From: Patescibacteria group bacterium
GTDB taxonomy: Bacteria; Patescibacteriota; Minisyncoccia; UBA6257; GWB1-50-10
NCBI GenBank assembly: GCA_038065455.1
Contig: JBBTQX010000002.1
Location: forward strand, 32,001-96,000
Direction of reading: 5' to 3'
Length of the DNA: 64,000 nt
The position numbers were made by a program, and so were the translations under genes. Below are positions 8,809 through 52,221 of this stretch, piece by piece; position 1 is the first letter of the stretch, and every line of letters begins with the position of its first letter. The notes under the pieces were generated by a model. That model was not told where the DNA came from. It did not search any database and saw only the letters and a program-made list of their open reading frames with translations.

Positions 8809-8953
8809 ACCAGGCAGTGAAAATGCGATTGCAAATCGTGATTGAATCGACGATTCTCGCTATTTCCAATGACCTTTTATTTATATTCATATGTTTTGAT
8901 ATTATGATGGTTTTCGATTTGAATTCAATCTAATCGCATTTCTACTGCCTGGT
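8809..8953. mobile_element. Family B IR element, short copy (B1) directly after the rpsK stop
   Basis: ACCAGGCAGTGAAAATGCGATT (8809-8830) / AATCGCATTTCTACTGCCTGGT (8932-8953). Confidence 0.8.
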
Positions 8954-9402
8954 TAAACCCTTCTGGTCTTGGCCGGACGCGGTCCGTTGTGCGGAATCGG
9001 CGTCACATCCTTGATGGACAGTATATTCAAGCCCTTGCCGGCGAAAGAACGGATGGCGGAATCGCGGCCGCTACCCACGCCGCGCACGAAAATCTCCACG
9101 GTATTCGGGCCGGTCTTTTCCAATTTCTGGGCAATGGCTTCGGCGACTTTGGAAGACGCGAAAGGAGTCGCCTTCTTGGGTCCGGAAAATCCCAAAGAGC
9201 CAGCGGACATCCATGTAATCACGGCACCCTTATCGTCGGTTACGGTAATAATGGTGTTATTATAGGTGGCTTGAATATAGATACGGCCGTTTTCCCAGTG
9301 CTGTTTGGATGTGGACGAAGATTGCTTAGCCGGCGCCTTTTCGGCCGTCCCCGCTTCCTTCACCGCTTCGTCTTTGGTTTTTATGACTTTTTTCTTTCCC
9401 AT
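8953..9402 (-). CDS. rpsK: 30S ribosomal protein S11
   Basis: ATYNNTIIT, SAGSLGFSGPKKATPF, GVGSGRDSAIR, DVTPIPHNG. Confidence 0.97.
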   Translation of the reverse strand: MGKKKVIKTKDEAVKEAGTAEKAPAKQSSSTSKQHWENGRIYIQATYNNTIITVTDDKGAVITWMSAGSLGFSGPKKATPFASSKVAEAIAQKLEKTGPNTVEIFVRGVGSGRDSAIRSFAGKGLNILSIKDVTPIPHNGPRPAKTRRV

Positions 9403-9415
9403 TTGCCGATTATAT

Positions 9416-9450
9416 ATGAATTTTCGAGTCTACAGACGATGAAAATTCAT
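9416..9450. repeat. Hairpin upstream of rpsK
   Basis: ATGAATTTTC (9416-9425) / GAAAATTCAT (9441-9450), with an inner GTC/GAC pairing. Confidence 0.6.
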
Positions 9451-9464
9451 CCATAGAATCGAGC

Positions 9465-9563
9465 ACCCCGCCATCATCCCCGACTTGGAGCAGGATATTT
9501 TCTTTCATTATGATTTTCGTTATTTTATTGTTTTTCATATTTTTAGTGTAATGATGGCGGGGT
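9465..9563. repeat. IR-bounded AT-rich insert between rpsM and rpsK
   Basis: Perfect 13-bp IR ACCCCGCCATCAT (9465-9477) / ATGATGGCGGGGT (9551-9563). Confidence 0.75.
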
Positions 9564-9573
9564 AAGTGTTCCC

Positions 9574-9957
9574 TTATTTCAAATCGACTTTCCGCTTGCC
9601 ACTACCGGCCGTCTTCCTGACGTTGCCGCGCACCGTCCGGGAATTCGTTTTCGTCCGCTGGCCGCGCACCGGAAGCTTTCGCAAATGACGCACGCCGCGA
9701 TAGGCTTTAATATCTTTCAAGCGAGCGATGTTCTGTTTTATCACTTGCCGCAACTCTCCCTCAATCTTGTAGTTCTTCTCTATCATTGATTGGATGCGGT
9801 TCACCTCGTCCGGCGCCAAATCCTTCGCTCGTTTTTGGAGGTCGATTTTCGCGCCGACCAAAACCTTGGCGGCCAAGGTCGGGCCAATGCCGTAGATGTA
9901 GCCCAAGGCCACGTAGATTTTTTTGTTATCGGGTATGTTTACTCCGGCGATTCTCAT
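9574..9957 (-). CDS. rpsM: 30S ribosomal protein S13
   Basis: MRIAGVNIP, IYGIG, YRGVRH, LPVRGQRTKTNSRT. Confidence 0.97.
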   Translation of the reverse strand: MRIAGVNIPDNKKIYVALGYIYGIGPTLAAKVLVGAKIDLQKRAKDLAPDEVNRIQSMIEKNYKIEGELRQVIKQNIARLKDIKAYRGVRHLRKLPVRGQRTKTNSRTVRGNVRKTAGSGKRKVDLK

Positions 9958-9959
9958 AA

Positions 9960-10076
9960 TTATCCTTGTCTTTGTTTATGCCTCGGGTTCTTGGCACATA
10001 TGACGTAAACCCGCCCTTTTCGACGGACGGTCTTGCAAACGCTGCAGATTTTTTTTACCGATGCTCTGACTTTCAT
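9960..10076 (-). CDS. rpmJ: 50S ribosomal protein L36 (too short for the ORF track)
   Basis: Manual translation [38 protein letters not shown]. Confidence 0.97.
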
Positions 10077-10198
10077 CCCGTTAGAGACAGGATACGCTTA
10101 AAAAGCGCATCCGTGATATGTCGCTTGGTTTGATTATTCCGACCTGTTGGTTATTCATATTGATACATTATTCAAAATTTGTTTGTCTCTAACGGGAT
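10075..10198 (-). mobile_element. Family A IR element, short copy (A3) at the rpmJ start codon
   Basis: ATCCCGTTAGAGACA (10075-10089) / TGTCTCTAACGGGAT (10184-10198); internal hairpin with arms GGATACGCTT and AAGCGCATCC. Confidence 0.8.
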
Positions 10199-10208
10199 TC
10201 ATAAAACT

Positions 10209-10436
10209 TTACAATCTTCGCACGATTCGTCCCCGTTTGTCCAGGATGTTCGCCATCTCCACCATAACCCTGTCTCCGGGGATAACCCGGATGCGGTTGA
10301 TTTTAAGCTTGCCGGCGGGATGCGCTAAAATGTCTTTTTCTTCCCCGTTTTCAAGTTTGACCTTCACGCGGAAAAGCAAACCCGGCAGTGCCTCCACCGC
10401 TATTCCCTCAATCCTGACTAAAGGCGTATTTTCCAT
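10209..10436 (-). CDS. infA: Translation initiation factor IF-1
   Basis: IEGIAVEALPGLLFRV, ILAHPAGK, IRVIPGDRV, RGRIV; upstream of rpmJ. Confidence 0.93.
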   Translation of the reverse strand: MENTPLVRIEGIAVEALPGLLFRVKVKLENGEEKDILAHPAGKLKINRIRVIPGDRVMVEMANILDKRGRIVRRL

Positions 10437-10451
10437 TAACAAACAGAGTGA

Positions 10452-10480
10452 ATTTTAGACAAATACAGATTTTTTGTCAA
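10452..10480 (-). promoter_or_regulatory. Sigma70 promoter for the infA-rpmJ-rpsM cluster
   Basis: Minus strand TTGACA-17 bp-TAAAAT. Confidence 0.8.
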
Positions 10481-10513
10481 TTTTTTAATCTATAAATCGT
10501 CTTTAATATCAGT

Positions 10514-10555
10514 TGTGGATAACTATTGACGCTTATTCATGTAAGTCGTTATAAT
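10514..10555 (+). promoter_or_regulatory. Sigma70 promoter (+ strand) preceded by a DnaA-box match; points into the NYN 3' end
   Basis: TGTGGATAA (10514-10522), TTGACG (10526-10531)-18 bp-TATAAT (10550-10555). Confidence 0.7.
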
Positions 10556-10561
10556 GATAAT

Positions 10562-10642
10562 ACAGAATAACTTCTGTCCTGCCCGTGGATATGGGTTAAC
10601 TTTCCGCAAGACCTGATTCTCTTGAGTCAGGTTTTTGCTTTT
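10562..10642 (+). ncRNA. Candidate ~80-nt sRNA antisense to the NYN gene 3' end
   Basis: Consensus promoter upstream; two small hairpins; terminator AGACCTGATTC-TCTT-GAGTCAGGTTT plus a T-run, with G-U pairs forming on the + strand. Confidence 0.55.
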
Positions 10643-11306
10643 TAACCGCAATATACTTTTTTATGTCTTGAGCATTGATTTTATTATCAACTAGCTCTCC
10701 TAACGACGCATCAATATGCCCTCCTTTTATTAAAATTATCTTTTTCTTTTGTTTCTTTAAGAAACGGATAAGAGCGGCGAAATCGGCATCGGACGATAAT
10801 AGACAGAACGTATCATATGAATTGATGAGTCTTACGGAATCAACTGAAACCTCCACGTCAAAATTGCACTTCGGAATCAATATAAAATTCCCTCCCTTAT
10901 CAACATTTATCTTCCGCATTGTCTCGCTTTTTTCTTCGGAATCCAGATAATGCTTGATTTGCTGTATTGGTTTAGTGAAAACCCTAGACTTACCGAAAAT
11001 ATGTTCCGCGGCCCGTTTGAATCTTAAAGACCCTGGATTAACAGGGTCGTGTCCATAATAAAAACGATCATCGCTGGAAAACGCGCTCAAGAAATCTTTT
11101 AATTTTTGCAGACCAATCGTTAACAACTCATTATCTGCCATTTTCACTCCGCTCTCATCAAAATCATCTTCATCAAACCAATGATTGACGTTCGCAAAAT
11201 CAATGAATGAGATAATGTTCGGATACCTGTCCGGTAAGATATCAAGATTTTTTCTTATTTGATCTTTTTTAAGTTCTTCCAAATCCATTTTAATTTTCTC
11301 CTTCAA
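10596..11306 (-). CDS. NYN (PIN-like, LabA/DUF88) domain nuclease
   Basis: FIDFANV, KCNFDVEVSVD, LLSSDADFAALI acidic catalytic motifs. Confidence 0.85.
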   Translation of the reverse strand: MKEKIKMDLEELKKDQIRKNLDILPDRYPNIISFIDFANVNHWFDEDDFDESGVKMADNELLTIGLQKLKDFLSAFSSDDRFYYGHDPVNPGSLRFKRAAEHIFGKSRVFTKPIQQIKHYLDSEEKSETMRKINVDKGGNFILIPKCNFDVEVSVDSVRLINSYDTFCLLSSDADFAALIRFLKKQKKKIILIKGGHIDASLGELVDNKINAQDIKKYIAVKKQKPDSRESGLAES

Positions 11307-14142
11307 CTGTTTTTATTTCTTCCTCCGTTAAGCCGTAGAGCTTATATACCTCCTCATCAATTTTCTTGTCGGTTCTTCCTATTTCGGATTTCAGTCGTTC
11401 CCATTCGTTGGAATTTTCCTCGACGTCGTGAAATTCTTTATTAAGAAGGATTATCTTATCAACATAAGAAATTATTAATTTCTGCGATGCCTCGTCTGCA
11501 ATATAAATTGGTAGATCTAATAGTGGCTCCTTATCTATTTGTAGTTGATCACCCTGTAATTTCCCCTTATTTCTTAACCAGAAATGCATGATGTTTGAAT
11601 TGAGTAATCCAAGAACATATTTGAGATTCACTTTATCCAATTTTAAAATTATAAAAGCTCTTGTAACATAACAAGGAAAATCAACATATGAAAAGGATGG
11701 TTTTATGGTTTTCCTTATTGAAAAAATACAGTGGCCCTCAAAAAATCTTTCTTCGCGTGCCCTATGAAGACCATAGGGAGCATACACAGAAGTTAAAATT
11801 TTAGAAAATTTATCTAGGTGTTTTTTGAGATTAGGAAACTGTTCAATATGTTCCCGGAAATAACTGTCCGCATAAATTATACGGAGGCTTGTGTTTTTAA
11901 TAGATAAGTATCTATTTATTTCTTTTGTTGTATAGTACGGTCTTAAATATTGATCTTCAGGTTTTGTTGGTGAAAGTTCTTTAATTTCGTCCTCAGATAA
12001 AATAAATATGCCATCGCCTTTCTTTATTGTTTTATCTGACAAACCCTGTAGGTGCTTTTCAGTGATAAAATCTTGCAAAACATCAATGCCATTACCGACA
12101 TCTTTTTCGTTAATGTGGTAATTCTGTTTTGATTTTATCTTTTCTAGGAGAATGTCTTTATTGCTCTCGGTAAAAATTAAAAAGTGGCCCAGTAATTTTT
12201 CTGGTTTAATCTCAATTTCGGTTTTTTCACCAAAAATTCTGGAAATAAGTTCGTTTTCCGCTATATTCCTATCGGGAATCCTTAAATAACTTACCTTGTA
12301 TTTTTCATCTGGTTTTCCTTTTTTAAAGGTAAAAATCATTGTTTGAATCCCAGCTTGTTCAAAAACCTTATAGTCACCAAAATCTAGGAAGGATTTTAGT
12401 TCGCCATCTTTTAAAATTTTATCTCTAAAAATATCTGCGCCGGCATTGCTTACCCAATTATTCGGAGCGATAAAACTCAAAATTCCCCCGTCTTTAAGTA
12501 AATCTATTGAAATGCACGCAAACATTGTCCAAATATCCATTTTACCCTGATAATATGGGCTATCGTGCAGACCATTAAAAGCTTCTTTATTCACAAACTC
12601 CTTGATATACGGCGGGTTTCCGATAATCACATCAAACCCGCCTTGTTTGAAAACCTCCGGAAATTCCTCTTCCCAGTTAAACGGCTTCTTATTGCGAAAA
12701 TTTGCACCAAAATGCTTTTTAAGTTCCGAGTCGGTGCCCGAAATGAGCGAGTTTCCATTCTTTATATTTTTATCGAGCGATGGCAGCTTCTGCCTTTCAT
12801 TTAAAGCGCCTACAAGAAGATTTAATCTGGCGATTTCAACCGCTTGCTCGTCCAGATCAACCCCATAGATATTCTCTAAAAGTATTTGGATTTTTGTGAA
12901 AACATTCCCTGGTGCGCCCATTTTCTTGTATTTTTCATTGATAAGTTCCAACGCCTGAACAAGAAACGAACCGGAACCACAGGCCGGGTCCAGTACCTTT
13001 ATCTTCTTCAAATCCTCTATAGTGTTGCACTTTTCCAAAACCGGCCCCAAGGCGTTTTTCACGATATACTCAACGATAAAATGGGGCGTGTAATAAATCC
13101 CCTGCTCCTTGCGCTTCTTAGCATCCTTATGAACTTCTACGCCCTTCTTTGATTGAGAAAGTTTATAGCCGAGATAGTTTTCATAAACTGTTCCTAGAAC
13201 ATCAGCGGGCATCGCCTTGAAATCATATTCATAATAGCCCGGTTTGCCGTAGAGAATCTGAATAACTTTCTCCGTGGCGTCGCCATATTCCTCCCATTCT
13301 TCAAACGGGTGTTCGGAAAAAAGATTGGAATTGTAGGTTTTATCCAATTCCCTGAATTTATCCACCATGTGCTTGTAAAGCGGCACCTCGTTTTGGTCTT
13401 TGCGATTTTTCCATTCACGAAGCAATGGGATAAGCGTTGGCGGTTCAATTCCTCTATCCTCGGCAACACGTAAAAAGATAAGTCTGTCCAAAAGCTTTTG
13501 AACGCCTTCATCTAAAAATTGGGGGGCAATTTTAGAATTCCAAGCCTTCAACGATTTAGTAAGAATCTCCCGACATTCGTTCAGGTCGTTGAATAACAGC
13601 GAAGTTACCGGAATTTTCTGGAATTTCTTTCCGAATTTTTCTGCCTCTGTATCGATAAGATTTTTCTCGAATGATTCTCTTGATAAGAGCGAAAGTTGGT
13701 CAAAACATTCAATATATCTATCGTAGGAAATTTCAAAGAGAAGTTTGGCGGCCAATGTCGCTTTCGCATCCTGCGTGTTGAAAACTTTTATACTCTCAAA
13801 GTCGGTAAGCACTGCCCAAGTTACGCCCTTATTCCAAGAATATCTTATTGCTTGTTTGGCATATTCTTCGCGATGCAAATCCACCTTAAGTGATTTGGCC
13901 TCTAAATAGAATTTCGCCCGGCCATTTAAATAAAATCCGTAATCAACTCTATCCGAGGATGATAAATTTTCTTCCGCTGAAACCTCATTTTTGTTATGGA
14001 CATCCCACCCAAGCGCTTCAAAAATCGGCAGAATAAAATCTTTTTTTGTTTCCTCTTCCGTATAACTCTTTATCTTGCCGGCCGATTTAGCAATTTCATA
14101 CTTATCAATAAGCAACCTTATCTTCTCTTTCGGGTCATTCAT
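11290..14142 (-). CDS. Fused type IIG/IIL-like restriction-modification enzyme (N-terminal nuclease, N6-adenine MTase, TaqI-C-like specificity domain)
   Basis: EEETK...RVDYGF...YLEAK nuclease; GIYYTP, VLDPACGSGSFL, GFDVIIGNPPY; C-terminal LLNS and IDEEVYKLYGLT. Confidence 0.9.
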   Translation of the reverse strand: MNDPKEKIRLLIDKYEIAKSAGKIKSYTEEETKKDFILPIFEALGWDVHNKNEVSAEENLSSSDRVDYGFYLNGRAKFYLEAKSLKVDLHREEYAKQAIRYSWNKGVTWAVLTDFESIKVFNTQDAKATLAAKLLFEISYDRYIECFDQLSLLSRESFEKNLIDTEAEKFGKKFQKIPVTSLLFNDLNECREILTKSLKAWNSKIAPQFLDEGVQKLLDRLIFLRVAEDRGIEPPTLIPLLREWKNRKDQNEVPLYKHMVDKFRELDKTYNSNLFSEHPFEEWEEYGDATEKVIQILYGKPGYYEYDFKAMPADVLGTVYENYLGYKLSQSKKGVEVHKDAKKRKEQGIYYTPHFIVEYIVKNALGPVLEKCNTIEDLKKIKVLDPACGSGSFLVQALELINEKYKKMGAPGNVFTKIQILLENIYGVDLDEQAVEIARLNLLVGALNERQKLPSLDKNIKNGNSLISGTDSELKKHFGANFRNKKPFNWEEEFPEVFKQGGFDVIIGNPPYIKEFVNKEAFNGLHDSPYYQGKMDIWTMFACISIDLLKDGGILSFIAPNNWVSNAGADIFRDKILKDGELKSFLDFGDYKVFEQAGIQTMIFTFKKGKPDEKYKVSYLRIPDRNIAENELISRIFGEKTEIEIKPEKLLGHFLIFTESNKDILLEKIKSKQNYHINEKDVGNGIDVLQDFITEKHLQGLSDKTIKKGDGIFILSEDEIKELSPTKPEDQYLRPYYTTKEINRYLSIKNTSLRIIYADSYFREHIEQFPNLKKHLDKFSKILTSVYAPYGLHRAREERFFEGHCIFSIRKTIKPSFSYVDFPCYVTRAFIILKLDKVNLKYVLGLLNSNIMHFWLRNKGKLQGDQLQIDKEPLLDLPIYIADEASQKLIISYVDKIILLNKEFHDVEENSNEWERLKSEIGRTDKKIDEEVYKLYGLTEEEIKTVEGEN

Positions 14143-14148
14143 CTTATT

Positions 14149-15885
14149 TTATTCCGCCAGAATCTTTACCTTGTTCAAATAATTGGGAACGGATTTTACC
14201 CAGAAAGGCCAGAAAGAAATGTTGGCTTTTTGGAGGCCCGGCAGAGCGAAAATTTGTGTTTTGAGCGTTTCGCCGTCGAGGCCGAGAATCTGATTTTTGA
14301 AACTTTCCAAATTTATCTTCGGTTCGTAGGTAAGGACGCCGTTCACCGAAAAAGTCATCTTGCCGGCGGCGAAATCCGCGGTACTCGTCGAATAGTCCAT
14401 CGAGAAATTCCTGACCGTAATCTCCTCGGTCGATGTACTCAAAAAATCCACCAGAGCATCTCGGAGCATTCCCTCGTTGAAACCCAGTTGGCGCAACTCC
14501 CCTGCCACGAGGACGCTGAAATTGCCGTCCTGGTCGACTTGGCTCGAAACATTCTCGCTCGTCACTTTGAATTCCGAACCGTTATCCATTATTTTCAAAT
14601 TCTGCGAATCCAAAATCATCGTTTTGCTTTTAAGCGTATTCAAAAGCGCTTCTTCTATTTTCGCCTTCGCGCCGCTCACATCGCTTTCGGAAGGAACGAT
14701 CTGATTGCCTTCCGCTCCGCCCGTCATCGAGGATATTGATTCGGCATAGAATCCTTTATAGAGCGCCGGCGTCGCCTTGAAGCCCGGTATCTTCCATCCT
14801 CCACTCGGGGGCAAGTTGTAATCCGAACCCGCCTTATCCGCCACGACTTTCACCTCGACGGATGACGGCGTTCCATTCGCGGTTTTCATTCCCGGTACCA
14901 CGGCCCTATTCACCAATCTGAAAATTTTTCCTTCCGGAGATTCAAAACGGGTAGTCGCTACGAGCGTCTGGGACTTGGTGCTATAGACGTTATAAACGGT
15001 AAGCGTTCCGCCAGCCTTGGTACTCAAGGTGGAGCTGCCGGTTGCGGGAAAATTCATACTTAGATTCCCGGGCGCCACCGAAAGCTGGCCGGGCAGACTC
15101 GCCGCGTTGCCGCTCACGGAAGGAGTATTCACCTCTTTATCCGCCGTTACCCGAATGGAAAACGGAACAGTAGTTTTTTGTATGAAAATGTTGATTATTG
15201 CTCTGGGCAGAATGTCCGCCACCGCGAAATATCCCGCCGCCAAAACGACGGCCGTGCTGACGAGCATTATCGCCCAGAATTTTTTTCCGCGCTTCGCTTT
15301 CTTTTCGACATTCCTTTCAATCCTTTCGAAATTCTTTTCGATTCTTTCTTCCACTATCGGAGCCGGAATGTATTTCACCAATTCCTCTTCCGACGCGACG
15401 GGCTCCGTAATCGGAATTTTGGTTTCTTCGATTGCCGGGGCTTTTTTCTTTCTCGCGACTCTCGGCTTTTTCACCCCGGACTTCCTCGCCGGTTTTCGTC
15501 CCTCGATTTTTTCCTTCCCTCCGCGTTCCGCGTTCGGGACTTCGCTTTGCCTGACCAATTCTATTTCGGCCGCACCGACATCATCCAATCCCGGCAAAAT
15601 ATCCACCACAGATCTTTCCCTGGTTTTGAAAACCGGATTTATGGCCGGAATAGTCGCCAAGGACGCCAATTCCAGAATACGCTCGTCCACCGATTCTATC
15701 GCCAATTCCTTGCCGGCCGTTTCACACTCGCGCTCCAGTATTTGGAAATTATGGACCGAGGAACCCAGAACGGAGTTTTTGGGAATATTGAGAATGATTT
15801 TTTCCGCCTCGACGGCAGTCAGCTGGCCGACTACTTTGTTCAAGTCGTCGTCTTTGTCCAAAAATATCTTTTTTTCCGATGCCAT
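14149..15885 (-). CDS. Conserved single-pass membrane protein with a baseplate-J-like extracellular region (CPR-type)
   Basis: N-terminal KIFLDKDDDL...IPKNS, central TM helix, AGGTLTVYN...LVATTRF...ADKAGSDYN...MTGG; adjacent to an FtsA-like gene. Confidence 0.6.
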   Translation of the reverse strand: MASEKKIFLDKDDDLNKVVGQLTAVEAEKIILNIPKNSVLGSSVHNFQILERECETAGKELAIESVDERILELASLATIPAINPVFKTRERSVVDILPGLDDVGAAEIELVRQSEVPNAERGGKEKIEGRKPARKSGVKKPRVARKKKAPAIEETKIPITEPVASEEELVKYIPAPIVEERIEKNFERIERNVEKKAKRGKKFWAIMLVSTAVVLAAGYFAVADILPRAIINIFIQKTTVPFSIRVTADKEVNTPSVSGNAASLPGQLSVAPGNLSMNFPATGSSTLSTKAGGTLTVYNVYSTKSQTLVATTRFESPEGKIFRLVNRAVVPGMKTANGTPSSVEVKVVADKAGSDYNLPPSGGWKIPGFKATPALYKGFYAESISSMTGGAEGNQIVPSESDVSGAKAKIEEALLNTLKSKTMILDSQNLKIMDNGSEFKVTSENVSSQVDQDGNFSVLVAGELRQLGFNEGMLRDALVDFLSTSTEEITVRNFSMDYSTSTADFAAGKMTFSVNGVLTYEPKINLESFKNQILGLDGETLKTQIFALPGLQKANISFWPFWVKSVPNYLNKVKILAE

Positions 15886-15901
15886 TGGCTTTTATTTTAA
15901 C

Positions 15902-17026: not shown

Positions 17027-17054
17027 TACTAATTAGTATAGCTCAATTCTTTTC

Positions 17055-24230: not shown

Positions 24231-24231
24231 C

Positions 24232-40219: not shown

Positions 40220-40791
40220 ACTTTCTCCACGCGCTCCACGTACTCGCCTGTTGTCGTATTCACTCTCAAAATATCGCCTTCATTGATGAAGAGAGGAGCA
40301 TCCACCTTCGCGCCCGTTTCGAGCGTCACCACTTTCGTACCGCCTTGGGCCGTATTGCCCTTCACGGCCGGCGGAGCTTCGGTCACTTTCAAATCCATTT
40401 TTATCGGCAATTCCACATTGATAACCTTCTCGCCGAATTTATAGGCCGTTACTTCCAGATTGGTTTTGAGAAATTGGGCGGCCTTGCCGATAACGTCGAC
40501 GCTCAAGGTAAAGCGGTTTTTGGGATTACCTTTTTCGTTGAACCAAAATTCGCCGCGGCTCTGATAAATGAATATCACCGTCGTCGTGTCTATCTCGGCT
40601 TCCTCATATTCCTCGTTTTGGTGGGCGGAATAGTCCACCACCTTGCCGTTCACTAGATTCTCGATTTTGAGCTGGACGACTGGCTTCCTCTGTTGCATCC
40701 GGACGAAGGCGTATTCTATCACCTTCCACGGCTCGCCATCCTTGATGAAAACCGTGCCTATCTTCAACTCGTTATAGGATAATCTGGACAT
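40216..40791 (-). CDS. efp: Elongation factor P
   Basis: VELP, PAVKGNT, TLETG, PLFINEGD, GEYVER. Confidence 0.93.
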   Translation of the reverse strand: MSRLSYNELKIGTVFIKDGEPWKVIEYAFVRMQQRKPVVQLKIENLVNGKVVDYSAHQNEEYEEAEIDTTTVIFIYQSRGEFWFNEKGNPKNRFTLSVDVIGKAAQFLKTNLEVTAYKFGEKVINVELPIKMDLKVTEAPPAVKGNTAQGGTKVVTLETGAKVDAPLFINEGDILRVNTTTGEYVERVEKV

Positions 40792-40792
40792 A

Positions 40793-40929
40793 CCAGGTAG
40801 TGAAAATGCGATTTAAAATCGCGATAATTTGATTAATTTTTATAATAGATGACCTTTTATGTATCTTTTTACAATGCTGGGCAATAAATACGACTTAAAC
40901 TTGTTTCCAGTCGCATTTCTACTACCTGG
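40793..40929. mobile_element. Family B IR element, short copy (B2) at the efp start
   Basis: CCAGGTAGTGAAAATGCGA / TCGCATTTCTACTACCTGG flanked by a CATA direct repeat (40789-40792, 40930-40933). Confidence 0.8.
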
Positions 40930-41013
40930 CATAATTGCTGACTATTCTATTCAAAATCCGGAAGATTTGCAAATTCCTTTAGAAATCAGCCAATAACATA
41001 TTTAAGTGAAGCG

Positions 41014-41157
41014 CGGCATGATAAAAAAGTGGGTAAAAGCTCCGCTTTTTATCGACATCACTCGGACAAAACAAAAACATTGTTTTTGCTTTGCTCCTCG
41101 CTCGTCGATATAAGACTTGGCCTAGCGGCCCGGAGCGCACACTTTTTTGGCGTGCCG
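41014..41157. repeat. Long nested hairpin sharing 28 bp with the insert in tgt
   Basis: CGGCATG/CGTGCCG, AAAAAAGTG/CACTTTTTT, GCTCCG/CGGAGC, TATCGAC/GTCGATA, CAAAAACA/TGTTTTTG; 41111-41138 identical to 54140-54167. Confidence 0.7.
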
Positions 41158-41171
41158 AACCTAGCTTAGCG

Positions 41172-43166: not shown

Positions 43167-43198
43167 ATATTTATATTATCTCCTTAAGATAACACGCC

Positions 43199-43555: not shown

Positions 43556-43627
43556 TTACGATTACTTGGATTATGCGAGATTTTCTTCAAAAAATAACCC
43601 GCTCGCGGGTTATTTTATTTTTCCGTC

Positions 43628-43822
43628 TTAACCGTTATCTCCGTCGCCGTCCTTCGAAGTTTCTTCGAATTCCAGTTCGGGTTCGGAAACTTTTTCATTT
43701 GTTTTTTTACCCTTTAAAATCATTCGGGAACAGTGAGCAATCCACATCCCTTTTATGATTCGATAAATCATAAAAATGGCTGCTATCGCGATTACGATGA
43801 CCCACCATCGAAGGCTCATCAT
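43628..43822 (-). CDS. Small single-TM hypothetical protein
   Basis: 64 aa; TATAAT 8 nt upstream; terminator-like hairpin AAAATAACCCGC-TC-GCGGGTTATTTT downstream. Confidence 0.5.
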   Translation of the reverse strand: MMSLRWWVIVIAIAAIFMIYRIIKGMWIAHCSRMILKGKKTNEKVSEPELEFEETSKDGDGDNG

Positions 43823-43856
43823 TTTCTGGAATTATACCATAGCTGATGCGTGTTCG

Positions 43857-44162
43857 TCAACCGATTATTCCCGACATCCATTCCTTATAGACCCGGTTTA
43901 TCCGCTTTACGTCTATCGCGGCCACAATCGGGGTGGAATACGAGTGGTTCTCGTGAATCATATCCTCTATATCCTGAATCTTGGATTCATTCGTCTTGAT
44001 GATAAGAGCGTACTCGTTTTCGCACTTCATCGCGCCCTCCCAGATATAGCAGGATTCAATCGGCCACATATTGACGCAGGCGGCCACTTTCCTTTCCACT
44101 ATCAATTTGGAGAGTTTGCGCGCTTCTTCGATATCTCGGCAGGTGGAGTAAATAAAAACCAT
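43857..44162 (-). CDS. cutA: Divalent-cation tolerance protein CutA
   Basis: AACVN, YIWEG, ENEYALIIKT, HSYSTP. Confidence 0.9.
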   Translation of the reverse strand: MVFIYSTCRDIEEARKLSKLIVERKVAACVNMWPIESCYIWEGAMKCENEYALIIKTNESKIQDIEDMIHENHSYSTPIVAAIDVKRINRVYKEWMSGIIG

Positions 44163-44185
44163 ATATTTAATTATACTCCTTTTTT

Positions 44186-45640: not shown

Positions 45641-45642
45641 TT

Positions 45643-45956
45643 ACCAGGCAGTAGAAATTCGACTATTTGTGGTTTTTATCATAAAAGTATTCTTTGAGCA
45701 TGCGCTTTAGCAATCTGGCACCTTGGCTCGTCTTCAGATATTGCTCTCTTCTTGTTGCGTCCCTTGAATTCAAGTATGCCTCATAGTGTATCAATATCCA
45801 AGGTGCTTTTTTCTGGTTGAATAGCTCTTTTTGCGATTATGTTCTTTGAATCTTCTCTTTAAATCATTGGTATAGCCTATATACAACGAATTGTCTTTTA
45901 GACTCCGGAGAATGTAGATATAGAACATAATCGCGGTCGAATTTTCACTGCCTGGT
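45643..45956 (-). mobile_element. Family B IR element, nuclease-carrying copy (B3)
   Basis: ACCAGGCAGTAGAAATTCGAC (45643-45663) / GTCGAATTTTCACTGCCTGGT (45936-45956) enclosing a GIY-YIG gene. Confidence 0.78.
45663..45928 (-). pseudogene. GIY-YIG endonuclease split by a -1 frameshift at A_AAA_AAG (pseudogene, recoded gene or assembly error)
   Basis: Frame 0: MFYIYILRSLKDNSLYIGYTNDLKRRFKEHNRKKSYSTRKK; the -1 frame continues APWILIHYEAYLNSRDATRREQYLKTSQGARLLKRMLKEYFYDKNHK*; not in the ORF track. Confidence 0.85.
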
Positions 45957-45961
45957 GAAGT

Positions 45962-46477
45962 TTATTTTAAAGCGCCGATTTCTTTCAGGAACGATTCGAA
46001 TATATTCAGTATTTCTTTCGCTTCGCTTTCTTTTATTTCAAAGCCGGCCGTGTGCACCAAATCGTTTCGGATGCGATGGGCCCGCCAAAGATTTTCCAAG
46101 GTTTTCAGTTCCTTCGGGTTGAGCTTCTGGAGCTTGTCGGCGATATGCTCCCCTTCCAAACCCAGATCGTCGAGCGCTTCGCCCACCAGATTGTCAGCCG
46201 CCATTATCGCGAGCGTAAAAGAATGAGGCGGAGCGGAATGGGCCTTTTCCAATATCTTTTCCCAAACCTTCGCGTATCTTTCCGTATCGAATTCGCTTTG
46301 GGCGGCTTCCGTTCCTTCTTCTTTTTTCTTTCTCAGCGAACTGATTAAATCGGGGCGGTATTTGAGCGCCTTACGAAGTACAATAAAAAAACCAACCAGA
46401 AAAACGACGTCCAAAATAATGAATATGGTGCGAGCGGTGTAATAAAATCCCTCCAATTTTCCGAAAAAATCAGCCAT
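45962..46477 (-). CDS. Conserved single-TM hypothetical protein
   Basis: TM, W..I, LAIMAADNL, GEHIADKL, LWRAHRIRNDLVH (HEPN-like RxxxxH). Confidence 0.7.
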   Translation of the reverse strand: MADFFGKLEGFYYTARTIFIILDVVFLVGFFIVLRKALKYRPDLISSLRKKKEEGTEAAQSEFDTERYAKVWEKILEKAHSAPPHSFTLAIMAADNLVGEALDDLGLEGEHIADKLQKLNPKELKTLENLWRAHRIRNDLVHTAGFEIKESEAKEILNIFESFLKEIGALK

Positions 46478-47896
46478 TTATTTGTATCTTTCCAATTCTT
46501 CTTCTTCCCCGAAAATTGGTAATCCCGAAGGCGGACCAGCCCGCTTGCTCTCAAGATGTTTCAAATGGGGTTCGGTAAGCACAGTTGAAGTCGGAATATG
46601 GAAAAGCGTAGCGAGGCACTTCGTATTCATAATGAAACGCTTGGAAGTAGTATTCCAATTAAAAAGATAGGAGGTGAGCATTCTGCCGATGAGCGTTTCG
46701 ACCGGTACTTCGCGCTTCCGGTAATTTAAAAGCATCCTGGCTTTTCGGAACTCAAGCCGGGTACCGGGGAAAACGTAGGGTTTTTTCCAAATCATTGTTC
46801 TGGTGGCCACTCCATTATTTTGGCCGAAAGAATTCATATCCAAGTTGGAATATTGATTGAAAGCGCCCACGATACCTTTGCGGGGAAAATTATCGGAAAA
46901 GGTTTTTTTATTCGAGAAGTATACAAAACGTATCAAGGTGTTGAAGGCGGGCTTCGAAAGATTTTCTTCCACGGCCTTCAAAACATCGGCTTGGCCGGGC
47001 GAACGCATCATAGCCATTTCATACTCTTCGTTTCCGCCCGTAGGCAATGCGCGACCCTTCACCTTCCTCGTTTGCGGCTCTCTTAATTTTTTTAAATCGT
47101 CCTCCCATTTATCGTCCCAATTCTCCGAGCCGGCCGGAGCGATAAGGAACTGAATGCCGACGATTTCCGTCTTCTTCAATTTTCCCAGAATTTCCAAAAA
47201 AGATGAAATAGGGTCAAAACTTTTTTCCTCGGCTTCGTTCTCAAAATCGGTGTAGGTTTTTATCGGATACATATCGTCTTTTTTGAGTGTCATTTCGGTG
47301 CCCCACATATCCAAGTCTTTTTCGTAAACCTCATAAACCTTGTCGGGCAACTGGTCGACATAATCCGGCACCTCGACGATATCCAAGCCGGGATAATAAG
47401 AGAAGAAAGCCGCCTCTATCAAGTTTCTCAACTTGGCGTAACACCGAATATAGAGATGGATCTCGCCGCCGAAGCTGACCATTTCAAGCGAATACCATCG
47501 GGGCACTTCGCCGTCCCAATATTTTTCGCGAATATCATCCGGCGCATTCCTTAAGGAATGGAATGCCGCTAAAACCTGCTCCATTGCCTGAGAACTCTTT
47601 TCGATGAGGCGAGGTATCCTAAGCTCGAGAAAAACCCATTTAATATCAGTCTTAAATATCTCCTGGCGCCAATGAAGCCAGGTCTCGAGAAAAAGTCGGA
47701 AAATTACGATGAAAAACCATAGCCACCAAGTCCGTTTCAAAAAATCAATTACGACCGTGCCGAGAACGGAGGGAGCAACAAGGGGTACGACGAGCGCCCC
47801 GGCCGCGCCGGAAATGAAGAGTATCCACCAGGTCTCTTCTTTGCTGAACGCCTCTTCGAGAAAAGAGCCGAGCTCCTTCAAAAAATTACCTAACAT
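46478..47896 (-). CDS. Conserved membrane protein upstream of the ATPase pair
   Basis: N-terminal TMs, LELRIPR, AMEQV, SLEMVS, YPIKTY, LATLFHIP, PPSGLP. Confidence 0.75.
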   Translation of the reverse strand: MLGNFLKELGSFLEEAFSKEETWWILFISGAAGALVVPLVAPSVLGTVVIDFLKRTWWLWFFIVIFRLFLETWLHWRQEIFKTDIKWVFLELRIPRLIEKSSQAMEQVLAAFHSLRNAPDDIREKYWDGEVPRWYSLEMVSFGGEIHLYIRCYAKLRNLIEAAFFSYYPGLDIVEVPDYVDQLPDKVYEVYEKDLDMWGTEMTLKKDDMYPIKTYTDFENEAEEKSFDPISSFLEILGKLKKTEIVGIQFLIAPAGSENWDDKWEDDLKKLREPQTRKVKGRALPTGGNEEYEMAMMRSPGQADVLKAVEENLSKPAFNTLIRFVYFSNKKTFSDNFPRKGIVGAFNQYSNLDMNSFGQNNGVATRTMIWKKPYVFPGTRLEFRKARMLLNYRKREVPVETLIGRMLTSYLFNWNTTSKRFIMNTKCLATLFHIPTSTVLTEPHLKHLESKRAGPPSGLPIFGEEEELERYK

Positions 47897-47932
47897 TGAT
47901 TTCTTTTTATTTTACCTTATTAGAGAAATAAC

Positions 47933-47966
47933 AAAAACCCCGCCAATCCATAGACTGGCGGGGTTT
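47933..47966 (-). terminator. Intrinsic terminator
   Basis: Stem CCCGCCA...TGGCGGG next to an A-run on the + strand (U-tract on the minus strand). Confidence 0.65.
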
Positions 47967-47978
47967 CCGAACATTGGC

Positions 47979-48998
47979 TTAGGCCTCGCGAACCTGGTAT
48001 TTACCGCTATCCAATCGCTTGAAATACCGGCGATTTTGGAGATTAAGAAGAATGGTATTCTCCTTGAGAAGGCGCTGTTCGTTCACGAGACGCACCACCG
48101 TCGCGGATTCCAAAGAACCGTGTTTTTTCAGGAGCCGAGCGATGACCTCCCGCACCGTACCGGGTTCGTAGCCTTTTTCCTTCAGGGCATAAACGCCGCG
48201 CCCGACGAGAACGAAGCGATTGTCCTTGATGAGCTCGTTGTGCACTGTTTGAACGTGCGCCGGTTTCTTATCCAAACCGAACTTGTTGATATTCTTCGCG
48301 ATATCCCCGAAATGAAGAGGCCGTTCGTGTTTCTTCAAAACCAGATAAACTTTGTCGCGGATCGTCTTAGGCTCGATCTCGGGCCATTCTTTCAAACCGA
48401 AATCGCCGAAGATGTTCGTGCCAAAATGTTTCGGGATGGAAAGAAGATGGGCGGAAACCAAATCTTTCATATGATTCAAATAAAGTTTCTTGTTTAAAAT
48501 TTCTTCCTTCTTGCCGGACTTCAGGAAATTTGTGACCGTCTTTATGAAATCATGGAATTTTTCTTTGGATTTTTCATCGGAGAACCAGAAGGCTTGCGCG
48601 TTGTCGTCGTTCTTCGAATAAGAGGGTACACCCGCCACGAGAAGAATGAAGCGCAGTTTCTGGTCGGCGTGCTTCACATCCGCTCCAATCTCAAGGCCGT
48701 GAATAAGGTCGTTCATAAAATTGTCGTCGCGCTTCACGCCGCCCACACCCGCCAGGTGCTTCCTGGCATAATCCAAAATGACCGCCGCTTCTTCTTTTAC
48801 CTTCTTCGAAAGTTTTTTAATCGCCTGCTCCTCTATCTGGCGCACCCGCTCGCGGGTGATTTTGAGTTCATCGCCGATGAATTGGAGTGTCGAGCGCTCG
48901 CCGGTCTTCAAACCGAAACGGCCGACAATCACCCGGCGCTGTTTGGGGCTGAAATCGGCGAGAAGATTATCTATTAATTGGTCGAGATTTTGTTTCAT
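47979..48998 (-). CDS. Sigma70 region-4-like HTH plus C-terminal HARE-HTH-like protein
   Basis: RFGL...TLQFIGDELKITRERVRQIE; PLHFGDIA, TVHNELIKDNRFVLVGRGVYALKE. Confidence 0.8.
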   Translation of the reverse strand: MKQNLDQLIDNLLADFSPKQRRVIVGRFGLKTGERSTLQFIGDELKITRERVRQIEEQAIKKLSKKVKEEAAVILDYARKHLAGVGGVKRDDNFMNDLIHGLEIGADVKHADQKLRFILLVAGVPSYSKNDDNAQAFWFSDEKSKEKFHDFIKTVTNFLKSGKKEEILNKKLYLNHMKDLVSAHLLSIPKHFGTNIFGDFGLKEWPEIEPKTIRDKVYLVLKKHERPLHFGDIAKNINKFGLDKKPAHVQTVHNELIKDNRFVLVGRGVYALKEKGYEPGTVREVIARLLKKHGSLESATVVRLVNEQRLLKENTILLNLQNRRYFKRLDSGKYQVREA

Positions 48999-49041
48999 AT
49001 TTTAATGATGATAACGATAGCATAATGGTTTTACGGTGTCA

Positions 49042-49111
49042 ACCAGGTAGTGAAAATTCGGCCGCTTCGCACAGTCTGCCTTTGGCAGAAGCCGAATTTC
49101 TACTACCTGGT
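49042..49111. mobile_element. Family B IR element, minimal copy (B4) after secF
   Basis: ACCAGGTAGTGAAAATTCGGC / GCCGAATTTCTACTACCTGGT; TCAA direct repeat at both ends; inner hairpin TCTGCC-TTT-GGCAGA. Confidence 0.8.
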
Positions 49112-49126
49112 CAATCCCCCATCAGA

Positions 49127-50017
49127 CTATTTTTTCTGCCAAAGATACAACAGCGGGCTGGCCACGAATATGGAGGAATAGGTCCCGAAAACCGTTCCCA
49201 CGAGAATAGTGAGAATGAAGAAGAATATGGAAGCCGGGCCGAAAATAAGCAGGGTCACGAGCACAATAACGAGTGTGAGCGTGGTGTTTATGGAACGGGC
49301 CATGGTTTCGTTCACGCTGAAATTAATGATTTCGCCCAAGTCGAATCTTTTGCCTCGATTCAAAGTCAGGTTCTCCCGAATGCGGTCGAAGACCACGATG
49401 GTGTCATGGACGGAAAAACCCATCACGACAAGCAGTGCCACGATGAAATTCGTGTCTATTTCAATTCCTTTCCAGTGTCCCAAAATGGCCAAAAGGCCGG
49501 CCGGGATACTCACGTCGTGCAGGAGTGTCAAAAGAGTTACGATACCATACTTCCAAGATTTGACCGGTTCCGAAACCTTTCGGAAAGCCCAAGCAATGAA
49601 AAGCGATATACCGAACATTACGAGCGCCACGGCCCAAATGGATTTATTTTTGAGTTCCGAACCGATAGCCGGACCGATCGAGGAGTAACTTTTTTCGGAT
49701 ACCTCGCCGAATTCTTTTGCGAGCTCTTCCTTATAGTTCCGCCTCTGCTCTTCGCTCAAGCTCGGCAGGCGAACAAGGAAAGTTCCGTCATCGGAACTCT
49801 TCACGCTCACTGTACTTCCCTCTCCCGCCGTTTTTTGCAAAGCCTCCTTGATCGCCGTTTCGGTCACATCGCTCTTTCCAAAACTCATCTGCCATTCCGT
49901 GCCGCCTTTAAGGTCAATGCCGGGCCGGAGGCCGAAGATTATAATGAGCGCCCAAGCCGCGACAACCATAAGTCCAGAGAATCCTAAAAAGTAATTTTTA
50001 TTCGCTATCAGATTCAT
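49127..50017 (-). CDS. secF: Protein translocase subunit SecF
   Basis: GIDLKGG, IGPAIGSEL, LLHDV, GFSVHDTIVVFDRIRE, RSINT, YSSIFVASP. Confidence 0.95.
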   Translation of the reverse strand: MNLIANKNYFLGFSGLMVVAAWALIIIFGLRPGIDLKGGTEWQMSFGKSDVTETAIKEALQKTAGEGSTVSVKSSDDGTFLVRLPSLSEEQRRNYKEELAKEFGEVSEKSYSSIGPAIGSELKNKSIWAVALVMFGISLFIAWAFRKVSEPVKSWKYGIVTLLTLLHDVSIPAGLLAILGHWKGIEIDTNFIVALLVVMGFSVHDTIVVFDRIRENLTLNRGKRFDLGEIINFSVNETMARSINTTLTLVIVLVTLLIFGPASIFFFILTILVGTVFGTYSSIFVASPLLYLWQKK

Positions 50018-50140
50018 CCCGTTAGAGATAGGATACGCTTAACAAGCGTATCCGTGATATTTTTGTTTGTTCGACTGATTTTGATTGTTTTGATTTTATG
50101 GAAGTCATATTATTTATACTTTGAAAATCTCTAACGGGAT
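50016..50140 (-). mobile_element. Family A IR element, short copy (A4) between secD and secF
   Basis: ATCCCGTTAGAGAT (50016-50029) / ATCTCTAACGGGAT (50127-50140); ATGAAT direct repeat on the coding strand; supplies the secD stop codon. Confidence 0.82.
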
Positions 50141-51420
50141 TCATTATCTTCAACAGATTTATTATCTTGACCAATAAATATCCGAAGCATTGTGCGCGTG
50201 ATGGTAATAGCCGAGAACATACTGATCAAAACTCCGATTAAAAGTGTAAGAGCAAAACCGCGCACGAAACTCGAAGTGAAATAATAAAGGACGGTCGCTG
50301 TAATAATGGTCGAGATATTGGAATCCCGGATGGAGGTCCAAGCCCGTCGGAAACCCTCTTCAATGGCGGAATAGTGGGATAATCCCTTTTTAAGTTCTTC
50401 CTTCGTCCTTTCGAAAACGAGAATATTCGCGTCCACCGCCATACCAATAGACAGAATGAAGCCAGCGATACCCGAAAGAGTCATCGTTATGGGAACGATT
50501 TTGAAGATTGCGAGCGTCAAAGCCACGTACATTAAAAGCGCGAAAGCGGCGAATACTCCCAAACCGCGGTAATAAATAATCATAAAAAGGAGGATCGCGA
50601 GCGTTCCGACAATGCCCGCGAAAACGGCCTTATCGAAGGCTTCCTTTCCGAAATCGGGGCTTACTGTCCGCTGATTCACGAGTGTAATCGGCGCGGGCAA
50701 AGCTCCCGCGTTGAATCTTTCCGCGAGCTGGCGAGCCGTATCGACGGTAAAATTTCCGCTGATTTGAGCCTTGCCGCCCGTGATTTTCTGCTGGACCGTC
50801 GGCATCTCAATCAATTGATTATCCAAAAATATAGCGAGCGGCTTTCCTACATTCTTTCCGGTCAGATCGGCGAAAATTTCCGCTCCTGCGCTCGAAAAAG
50901 TGAGGTCTACTTGGGGCTGGCGCGTCACGGAATCAAAACTTATCTGCGCGCTCACAACATAACGGCCATTCAATTCCGTTGGAATAAATTGAACAGTGGA
51001 ACTCGCCTCAAGCGAACCCGTTGCGGGAGCGATTACTTCGCGAAAATCCAAAAAAGGCGTAGCACCAATCTCTTTAATAGCCTCATCGATATCCTTTATT
51101 CCGGCCAACTCCACCGCCAGCCTGGTCGATTCTCCTGCTTTCTCGACGAAAACTCGCGGTTCGCTCACTCCGAATAAATTGACGCGCTTTTCGATGACAT
51201 CCCTGAGACCACTGACCACCGAATCCCGATCGGCGAAACCGACTTTCGAGAGATCCACTTCATACGTCAAAAGACTGCCGCCGGCCAAATCCAGGCCGAA
51301 GTTCCAGGGCCGGAAGGAGCTTATTTTCTGCCACAAGGGTTCGTAGGAAAAAACAGCGGCGAAGGCGGCTACCGCCACGAGAAGAATCAATACTGCTACC
51401 AGTCGCTTCTTGGAAATCAT
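50131..51420 (-). CDS. secD: Protein translocase subunit SecD
   Basis: GLDLAGG, RVNLFGVSEP, AGALPAP, IGMAVDANILVFER, IRDSN, VRGFA. Confidence 0.95.
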   Translation of the reverse strand: MISKKRLVAVLILLVAVAAFAAVFSYEPLWQKISSFRPWNFGLDLAGGSLLTYEVDLSKVGFADRDSVVSGLRDVIEKRVNLFGVSEPRVFVEKAGESTRLAVELAGIKDIDEAIKEIGATPFLDFREVIAPATGSLEASSTVQFIPTELNGRYVVSAQISFDSVTRQPQVDLTFSSAGAEIFADLTGKNVGKPLAIFLDNQLIEMPTVQQKITGGKAQISGNFTVDTARQLAERFNAGALPAPITLVNQRTVSPDFGKEAFDKAVFAGIVGTLAILLFMIIYYRGLGVFAAFALLMYVALTLAIFKIVPITMTLSGIAGFILSIGMAVDANILVFERTKEELKKGLSHYSAIEEGFRRAWTSIRDSNISTIITATVLYYFTSSFVRGFALTLLIGVLISMFSAITITRTMLRIFIGQDNKSVEDNESR

Positions 51421-51498
51421 TTCCCCAAAGTATATAGCAAGCTCGTTTTCAAATCAAATAAAAAACCGAGTTATTGAAACTCGGTTTCGATAAATTAA

Positions 51499-52002
51499 TC
51501 ACCCTCCAAAATTCCTCTTTCTTTTATAAGAGGGGAACTTATGGAAAGACGCTATGTGCGGTATATTTCCCATTTGTTCCTCCAATATATCCAGCATATC
51601 GAAGGAATCGAGATGTTGAAAGAAAGAAAATGTTTTTTCCGCTTCTCCAACGGCAAGTGGTAATCCTTCATCCATCACCATTAATAGTTCGGTTTTGTTT
51701 TTTTTCGAAGCCAGTTCCCTATCGATTTTTTCTTCCACTTCGGAAAAAAAATTATCCTGATCGGGAATATCGTCATCGGAAACATACCTGTGAGGATCGT
51801 GGCAAAAAACGAATTCATCGTCGTCAAAGTCAGGAATATTGAATTCCGAATTTGACGGAACAAGATTGCGAAGAGCCAGGCATTTCCGACCGGAGTTTTC
51901 GTTCGGCGGCCGCTTCAAGTTGATTTTTTCTTTTGCCAGCGAGAGCGTTTCTTTCGTCGGGAAGAAAACTTCTTTCGATACTACCAACATGGATTTTTCC
52001 AT
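51499..52002 (-). CDS. Hypothetical acidic protein
   Basis: AGGAGG 7 nt upstream of the ATG at 52002; terminator-like hairpin AAACCGAGTT...AACTCGGTTT near 51463-51488. Confidence 0.55.
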   Translation of the reverse strand: MEKSMLVVSKEVFFPTKETLSLAKEKINLKRPPNENSGRKCLALRNLVPSNSEFNIPDFDDDEFVFCHDPHRYVSDDDIPDQDNFFSEVEEKIDRELASKKNKTELLMVMDEGLPLAVGEAEKTFSFFQHLDSFDMLDILEEQMGNIPHIASFHKFPSYKRKRNFGG

Positions 52003-52150
52003 GACATTTCCTCCTATTATTAGGGTTGGTTGATAAGGGTGGATTATTGATTTTTTGTGGTACTCATTCAATTATACCCCCGAATTTTCAATAATATCAA
52101 TTGGGTGTACTGGCTTTTATTTGAAAATATTGACGAATTTCACCGGGTTC

Positions 52151-52221
52151 ACCAGGTAGTAGAAATGCGATCAGTTCGCTTTGCGAACTAAACTTGAATC
52201 ATCGCATTTTCACTACCTGGT
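52151..52221. mobile_element. Family B IR element, minimal copy (B5) overlapping the M23 gene stop
   Basis: ACCAGGTAGTAGAAATGCGAT / ATCGCATTTTCACTACCTGGT; inner hairpin AGTTCGC-TTT-GCGAACT. Confidence 0.8.

Follow-up and report, generated by a model that had tools for sequence, protein, structure and literature searches.

Among insertion sequences (IS) and miniature inverted-repeat transposable elements (MITEs), we take the IS5/IS1031 type and the Correia elements of Neisseria to be suitable examples for comparison with short inverted-repeat elements of bacteria. A folded single strand is used by the integron attC site, in which conserved unpaired bases, not the stem sequence, mark the strand used. 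For the repetitive extragenic palindromes (REPs) of E. coli, one study describes a conserved 2x2 mismatch midway along the stem, which is required together with GTAG by TnpAREP, loss of activity after repair of the mismatch, and strand-specific recognition (PMC8266576). In the rRNA genes of Patescibacteria, insertions encoding GIY-YIG nucleases have been described as neither introns nor of the homing type (PMC11270868). We describe here a family of inverted-repeat elements, family B, found in a 64,000-nucleotide stretch (hereafter the window; C2:32001-96000) of a 654-kb, 10-contig Patescibacteria genome with a G+C content of about 46%. The full-length form of family B encloses a single small GIY-YIG nuclease gene, and its two arms differ by a fixed pair of central nucleotides. 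The hosts are ultra-small groundwater bacteria.

The central GA/AG asymmetry of the family B arms

The five copies of family B (B1 to B5) recognized in an earlier reading of the sequence (the original prediction) were all located as claimed, each with one GA arm and one AG arm, and both orientations are present. B1 is a 143-bp non-autonomous element on the plus strand (8810-8952), with the GA arm at 8810-8829 on the plus strand (GA at 8819-8820) and the AG arm at 8933-8952 read on the minus strand (A10 at 8943, G11 at 8942). B2 is a 137-bp non-autonomous element on the plus strand (40793-40929; GA at 40802-40803, AG arm on the minus strand at 40920 and 40919). The 312-bp full-length element B3 lies on the minus strand (45644-45955), with the AG arm at 45644-45663 (AG at 45653-45654) and the GA arm on the right side at 45936-45955, read on the minus strand (45946, 45945). 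Two hairpin-class elements complete the set, the 68-bp B4 on the plus strand (49043-49110; GA at 49052-49053, AG arm on the minus strand at 49101 and 49100) and the 69-bp B5 on the minus strand (52152-52220; AG at 52161-52162, GA arm on the right, minus strand, at 52211 and 52210). Every window copy has one GTGAAAAT arm and one GTAGAAAT arm. A window search with a 15-nt arm pattern, both purines left free, gave 10 exact matches against 0.61 expected, plus one unrelated match with two mismatches. The arms are 20-bp terminal inverted repeats beginning with CCNGG, one reading ..AGTGAAA.. and the other ..AGTAGAA.., and the asymmetry is exactly central, at positions 10-11 (GA on one arm, AG on the other).

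The shorter forms (60-150 bp; B1, B2, B4 and B5) have retained nothing but the arms and are non-autonomous derivatives. B1 and B2 share the internal sequence ATGACCTTTTAT (8869-8880 and 40849-40860), and B4 and B5 each hold a TTT-loop hairpin, both as originally described. Some short elements carry flipped interiors; that of B5 is flipped relative to most short copies. A conserved-looking open reading frame (ORF) of 27 codons is found in several 125-148-bp copies, among them B1 (8810-8952, minus strand) and similar ones at C5:15092, C6:4519 and C10:13533, where it reads outward through the GA arm and terminates in a flanking TAA; where the neighbouring genes are co-directional, most of these copies, placed after a stop codon and ahead of the following ATG, point the same way. 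This ORF may be non-coding, because the internal variation tracks a subterminal hairpin and not codons.

Further copies were checked for random mismatch positions and for symmetric arms, either of which had been named as telling against the original prediction. In the genome that holds the window, 25/25 arm pairs combine GA and AG at a spacing of 61-312 bp, and symmetric pairs proved to be rare in the larger sets. Two of these arm pairs, which flank one N-gap, are probably a single element, and the asymmetry holds for 24/24 usable elements. After removal of duplicates, the elements of this genome, of further Patescibacteria genomes and of metagenomes make up a pooled set of 182, and 176 of them are GA/AG; the own genome (24/24) and the metagenomes (111/114) are the unbiased sets for this asymmetry, and the remaining loci are those from genome contigs (41/44), where the ORF-bearing elements had been picked with GA+AG forced and are not an unbiased test. 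The symmetric exceptions in the pooled set are one GA/GA and two AG/AG. The metagenome scan, for which one arm subfamily was employed with the purines free, gave 120 loci; the seeds (n=194) read GA in 101, AG in 89, AA in 2 and GG in 2, and GA+AG was found in 104 of the 109 paired elements. The arm pattern with free purines was detected in 9 of 40 relatives; within the order, 66 of 400 further genomes have arms, and control matches are almost nil. Among the places listed for the 400-genome scan, which were not counted exactly, AA does not occur, GG occurs once, and one pair each is GA/GA and AG/AG.

When each arm of the 182 elements was considered separately, G was found at left position 10 in 177, A at right position 10 in 180, A at left position 11 in 177 and G at right position 11 in 178, i.e. 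a conservation of 97-99%. Positions 10-11 lie between A7 G8 T9 and A12 A13 of a nearly invariant core and are equally conserved; the search pattern fixed the arm core and left positions 10-11 wholly free, and only the conservation figure for 10-11 is without selection bias. The left and right arms agree in 90-100% of the elements at positions 1-9 and 12-20, and in only 2-3% at positions 10-11. The central GA/AG is under selection, because positions 10-11 are 97-99% fixed while the enclosed ORFs have diverged to a synonymous divergence (dS) of about 0.25 to >1.3, over which neutral positions would be scrambled.

Outside of the centre, arm positions 1, 3, 4, 6, 14-17, 19 and 20 vary, and change together on both arms. 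The compensating variants reported for the window, CAGGC/GCCTG versus CAGGT/ACCTG and the inner TGCGA, TTCGAC and TTCGGC, are indeed present. For the pooled set, position 6 reads TT in 159, CC in 17, AA in 3 and mixed in 3 elements, and mixed states at position 15 amount to 4/182. The covariation was checked by direct pair counting in place of a covariance model: for 27 short elements, changes on both sides were found in 10 of the 20 arm pairs (34 cells), a level matched by 0/500 shuffles, with far lower counts in slid controls. Compensating changes on both arms are seen at 10 of the 18 arm positions outside 10-11; of the same 27 elements, 26 lack pairing at pair 11 and 25 have G·T at pair 10. 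These counts point to selection on arm complementarity itself, and arms that must stay complementary would be used as a pair. In the fold predicted for both strands of B1, B4 and B5, a 2x2 loop separates a 9-bp stem from an inner arm stem of 9-10 bp (z-score -4.7 to -8.5; about -4.7 for the single-strand folds of B1). The stems of the top and bottom strands are not equivalent (5'-GA over 3'-TC versus 5'-AG over 3'-CT), and GTAG occupies positions 8-11 on one arm only.

Mobility of family B and its GIY-YIG nuclease gene

Family B elements are mobile, as indicated by the empty site of B2 in a sister genome, the 4-bp target duplication, the spread over genomes of the order and the presence of tandem pairs. 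The sister genome G004, which has a syntenic contig, was used for the comparison of filled and empty sites. B2 is missing from G004, and its site there is a single CATA that is duplicated in the window (left copy 40789-40792, right copy 40930-40933); both this repeat and the TCAA repeat of B4 (49039-49042 and 49111-49114) had been pointed out in the original prediction and were verified. B3 and B5 are also missing from G004. The B4 ortholog occupies the same site in G004, with two G-to-A changes in its former GA arm, which now reads AA. At the B1 site, B1 is absent from G004 and 7-8 nt identical to its right tip (..TGCCTGG) are kept beside the same flank (window 8798-8809 and 8946-8957 versus G004:C35 about 5400-5420); this remnant could be left by a deletion or could be the footprint of an imprecise excision.

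A perfect 4-bp direct repeat flanks 112 of 176 pooled elements, compared with an average of 37.5 and at most 49 for shuffled flanks, and direct repeats of lengths other than 4 bp were not seen in the pooled elements. With the GA arm placed on the left, the commonest duplication is TATG (72, versus 9 for CATA). The duplications in the own genome (TCAA, TTGA, TTAA, TAAA, TATA, TCTA and CATA) all hold a start or stop codon on one strand, except for TATA, and the insertions lie at gene boundaries; the 125-148-bp class lies between a stop codon and about 7 nt ahead of the next ATG, and both orientations to neighbouring genes are present. The insertions are at many unrelated loci. Four tandem pairs share exactly one 4-bp duplication and are head-to-tail in 4/4 cases. 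Tandem arrays with a single TATG/CATA between the elements, and a minimal 35-bp element made of the two arms alone, were noted at L064:2609-3237, L048:61-448, L139:8487-8880 and L131 about 8749-8783. Tip-only footprints beside solo arms (inward tip 2/10, outward 0/10) are too few to interpret, and the joints at elements in contigs of public runs, with sides of 20-27 nt, are most likely derived from other copies and are uninformative on excision.

The full-length elements are about 300-330 bp in length and are filled by the single gene of a stand-alone GIY-YIG nuclease of roughly 88 amino acids (aa). In the gene of B3 (45663-45928, minus strand), a 1-nt frameshift within an A-run leaves two parts, of 45 aa and 43-48 aa. 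After 45805, a further base is present in a contig of run X9 (depth 26.1 of 26.1), and by reading of the frames this base joins the two parts again (frameshift region 45801-45815); it seems that an intact B3 allele exists in a related population, or else that the frameshift is an assembly error. A second copy of the B3 type is truncated by the contig end at C3:88616. A gapped-arm scan covering genomes of 185,579 species yielded 36 loci, of which 33 are real elements and 3 are chance matches; about 22 carry intact GIY-YIG ORFs of 82-93 aa, and they belong to many Parcubacteria lineages. Including metagenome loci, 30 intact family B proteins were collected. The ORF starts 20-43 nt from one end of the element (25-32 nt in 28/30) and stops 19 nt from the right end in 21/30.

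Intact relatives of the B3 protein match Pfam PF01541 (E value 6e-16), and the catalytic-domain residues Y6, Y17, G19, R27, N32 and E51 are invariant in 29 sequences. The median ratio of nonsynonymous to synonymous divergence (dN/dS) is 0.146 for those pairs whose dS could be used (24 of 325; dS 0.25 to about 1.4), and by these comparisons the gene is under purifying selection. The protein was modelled (predicted local distance difference test, pLDDT, 94) as a single domain of 82-93 aa without a separate DNA-binding domain. Matches by sequence to solved structures were obtained for 1ywl (E value 2.6e-5) and 1zg2 (4.9e-5); by structure, UPF0213 matches best, followed by Slx1 (TMq 0.6-0.69, root-mean-square deviation 1.5-3.2 Å), with UvrC and I-TevI far behind at an E value of about 1 (I-TevI about 1.2). 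The processing of branched DNA is named in the titles of the solved Slx1 entries. Homologs of this small protein are present in 35 of the 40 relatives, at up to 13 per genome, where the UPF0213/YhbQ family is multi-copy. The link of the elements to the GIY-YIG gene is strong. Two further inverted-repeat families, A and L127, each enclose their own small GIY-YIG gene, and because of this repeated and exclusive association of GIY-YIG genes with inverted-repeat families the nuclease is taken as the probable mobility enzyme of the elements themselves.

Possible recognition of the paired arms

We read family B as small, cut-and-paste-like mobile elements of Patescibacteria, in which the central irregularity would serve as a cis-signal for their own structure-selective nuclease, a reading to which we give a probability of about 0.5. 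Folding of a single strand, or extrusion of a cruciform, would generate a 9-bp stem, the tandem G·T/A·C irregularity and another 9-bp stem. The irregularity would be the anchor required by the nuclease: cleavage would be directed to the arm-target boundary, roughly one helical turn from it, and the ends, or the strands, would be distinguished by it. We favour recognition of paired arms because the arms are selected for pairing while their two central positions are selected against Watson-Crick pairs, and because the enzyme falls in the GIY-YIG branch whose solved members act on branched DNA; that a folded stem is recognized, rather than two different duplex ends, and where the cut is made are both inferred. 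That the mismatch serves as a structural signal is plausible and has a precedent.

Several observations weigh against this reading. First, no orientation bias with respect to GC skew was detected for the 25 elements of this one draft genome (12 versus 10 in negative-skew regions), which is unexpected if only the hairpin of one strand on the lagging-strand template is used. Second, copies decay in situ, as in the B4 ortholog of G004 with AA on its former GA arm, from which it follows that selection would act on transposition competence only. Third, the arms of families A and L127 are perfectly symmetric, and a central mismatch is therefore no general need of GIY-YIG repeat elements. Fourth, the covariation could partly reflect the co-descent of arm pairs with co-evolving proteins, and kinship inflates the shuffle tests. 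Fifth, the orientation defined by GA/AG is biased to an asymmetric target (TATG 72 versus CATA 9), which the favoured model leaves unexplained. Finally, the 4-bp duplication points to staggered cuts in a duplex target, unlike the known transposons that use a single-strand hairpin.

The proposal may be extended, more tentatively, to an unrecognized class of prokaryotic DNA transposon, in which the sole enzyme, a stand-alone Slx1-like GIY-YIG nuclease, would read the element's own ends as a paired stem or cruciform, anchored and marked for strand or end by the central irregularity, and cut with a 4-nt stagger where arm and target meet, and a host ligase would finish a cut-and-ligate move. Moving in this way, the element would take the 4-nt overhang along, could be excised precisely and would tend to re-insert beside existing copies. 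It is a speculation that cut-and-ligate with 4-nt overhangs fits the 4-bp duplication, the shared duplications of the tandem pairs and the inherited-looking TATG orientation. The literature searched gave no description of a bacterial inverted-repeat element with a GIY-YIG nuclease gene, though subscription papers and supplementary files could hold one.

The main rival, which we regard as less probable, is end differentiation in duplex DNA, where AGTGAAA and AGTAGAA would be two distinct duplex ends, like the left and right inverted repeats (IRL/IRR) of IS, that differ in their part in cleavage or strand joining, and the complementarity elsewhere would come from one protein reading both. Terminal inverted repeats with a 4-bp duplication are typical of duplex-DNA transposons, no replication-strand bias was observed, and both the TATG orientation bias (72 to 9) and the head-to-tail arrangement of the tandems (4/4) fit ends that are not interchangeable. 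Against such ends stands the finding that many arm variants, at positions 3, 6, 15, 16, 19 and 20, occur in one genome with one ORF type and are still matched between the arms: this matched variation is hard to explain if the positions are unread, and equally hard if a single protein reads them. The 88-aa single-domain protein, in addition, lacks a separate DNA-binding domain. Moreover, 3 of 30 intact elements, together with several degraded ones, have the ORF flipped with respect to GA/AG, the AG arm being upstream of it, and these elements are still inserted at TATG in the sense orientation. On a single origin of the flipped elements, 19 of the 27 inner branches of the protein tree are open.

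Several simpler readings of the asymmetry were also tried and rejected. That the asymmetry tracks the direction of the ORF was ruled out by the elements with AG upstream (3/30 intact), as was a promoter in the GA arm that drives the ORF (3/30 intact ORFs, along with degraded ones). That the ORF is fused to a host ATG within the duplication was ruled out by the frame relation, which is 13/9/8 over the three frames. With respect to TGA/TAG stop codons in one frame of the arms, both states are stops, and this idea explains neither the need for differing arms nor the near-absence of AA.

A function at the RNA level is improbable. In this explanation the elements would be co-transcribed with host genes, the arms would pair in mRNA, and A·C beside G·U would avoid a full RNase III or double-stranded-RNA substrate, or would tune the flanking translation, leading to harmless insertions. 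The insertions are exactly at gene boundaries, with duplications that contain start or stop codons and TATG dominant; the 125-148-bp class has a stop codon on one side and, about 7 nt away on the other, the following ATG; and GIY-YIG-encoding insertions in Patescibacteria rRNA genes are reported to be neither introns nor of the homing type (PMC11270868). The mere need for a mismatch, however, would permit many types, whereas both arm states are fixed in sequence, and the elements stand in both orientations to neighbouring genes in the own genome. No Rfam family matched the window at threshold, and one RNA run, with low-depth contigs, gave no usable evidence of transcription.

Mobilization in trans of REP-like elements by HUH Y1 proteins of the REP-associated tyrosine transposase (RAYT) type, which would read a folded strand with mismatch and GTAG, is still less probable. 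The genome has two PF01797 genes, and GTAG on one arm with a central 2x2 mismatch is also found in E. coli REPs (PMC8266576). Both genes, coding for 235-236 aa, lie outside the window (C3:12621-13329, minus strand, PF01797 match at 12877-13119; C10:7392-8102), and each has a short palindrome of its own to either side, REPtron-like and unrelated to families A and B, with no family B core within 1.5 kb. Among the 40 relatives, a Y1 match was found in 3/9 arm-positive versus 11/31 arm-negative genomes, and in one genome, G021, 12 arm hits are found without a Y1 match. Family B elements also have a target duplication, and no full-length element encloses a Y1 gene. HUH/RAYT mobilization was rejected for this lack of both linkage and co-occurrence of Y1 genes with the arms. 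As to DDE transposases, PF01609, the sole DDE family searched, gave no match in the genome. A frozen accident, i.e. a GA/AG difference that arose once in a founder and was inherited without function, is hardly tenable: all copies have a common ancestor and single copies decay in situ, but positions 10-11 are 97-99% fixed at an ORF dS of up to >1, while other positions changed repeatedly on both sides.

Other repeat families and comparison with known systems

Family A has 14-bp symmetric arms, TCCCGTTAGAGACA, with about 28 arm ends in the genome and many short derivatives. Its gene-bearing copy in the window (3626-3905, plus strand) carries a different, intact GIY-YIG gene of 87 aa, of which a near-identical copy with one silent base difference is located at C8:28386-28665. 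Other window copies of family A are at 8674-8797, 10076-10197 and 50013-50145, and for the first of these an empty site in G004 confirms a TTCA target duplication. The L127 element (about 6430-6770) holds a small GIY-YIG gene in a perfect 21-bp inverted repeat, CCCAGCACTTTCTTTGCGCTA, with symmetric arms. Another small GIY-YIG gene, at C8:92154-92420, lies directly upstream of a candidate tRNA-Arg(GCG) gene (judged by eye), and an 11-bp stretch from the 5' part of this candidate is repeated on the other side of the GIY-YIG gene. Just upstream of the gene-bearing family A element there is a perfect 17-bp inverted repeat with a 40-nt spacer (3536-3609). A 171-bp segment with its own inverted repeat (9403-9573), missing at the syntenic site of G004, is a small insertion of a different family, and a repeat of roughly 47 bp (41111-41160), with many copies of 91-100% identity in all four sister genomes, makes up a third family of short repeats.

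If the 88-aa GIY-YIG protein mobilizes the elements, a chemistry relying on a nuclease only would be added to the known transposase classes, and a part of the large and uncharacterized UPF0213/YhbQ family would gain a function. The fixed mismatch bears on whether a non-HUH protein has converged on the reading of a folded, irregular stem as in REP/IS200. These elements also shape the gene boundaries of very small, gene-dense genomes by insertion at start and stop codons. Elements of the family B kind may account for the GIY-YIG insertions described in Patescibacteria rRNA genes (PMC11270868).

With MITEs and IS, family B has in common the terminal inverted repeats, a short target duplication with an empty site, many dispersed copies, short derivatives of a gene-bearing form, and presence/absence differences between sister genomes. 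Unlike these, its only gene, coding for a GIY-YIG nuclease of 88 aa, is none of the DDE, serine, tyrosine or HUH transposase genes: the partner with the same ends (B3 and the 33 loci of the gapped-arm scan) encodes this nuclease alone, with a putative role as transposase. A fixed central 2-nt difference between the arms is also unlike MITEs and IS. The homing endonucleases of the I-TevI type share the GIY-YIG catalytic domain and a selfish, multi-copy gene, but the family B protein is a single domain of about 88 aa without a DNA-binding domain, and family B occupies many unrelated sites with a duplication, not one allele, while ORF-less derivatives move too. Slx1 and UPF0213 (YhbQ/YazA-type) proteins are the best matches of the family B protein in both sequence and fold; unlike Slx1, it has no RING/PHD domain or Slx4 partner, and its gene is multi-copy and framed by inverted repeats. 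The integron attC site would be alike in being marked by unpaired bases, an analogy only; family B has no integrase and a different function.

The original prediction that the folded stem is recognized as for REP and IS200/IS605 ends stands in part. Recognition of this sort is supported by the selection on arm pairing, the fixed GA/AG, the Slx1-like protein and an apt REP precedent (PMC8266576); membership in these groups did not hold up. Family B is outside REP and IS200/IS605: its stem is made by the two ends of the element, as full inverted repeats reaching the tips and not as a subterminal hairpin, and it has a 4-bp duplication, no GC-skew bias, and a GIY-YIG gene in place of an HUH gene, with no link to Y1 genes. 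Its predicted hairpin with a conserved mid-stem 2x2 irregularity and GTAG makes REP/RAYT the closest working analogy for family B.

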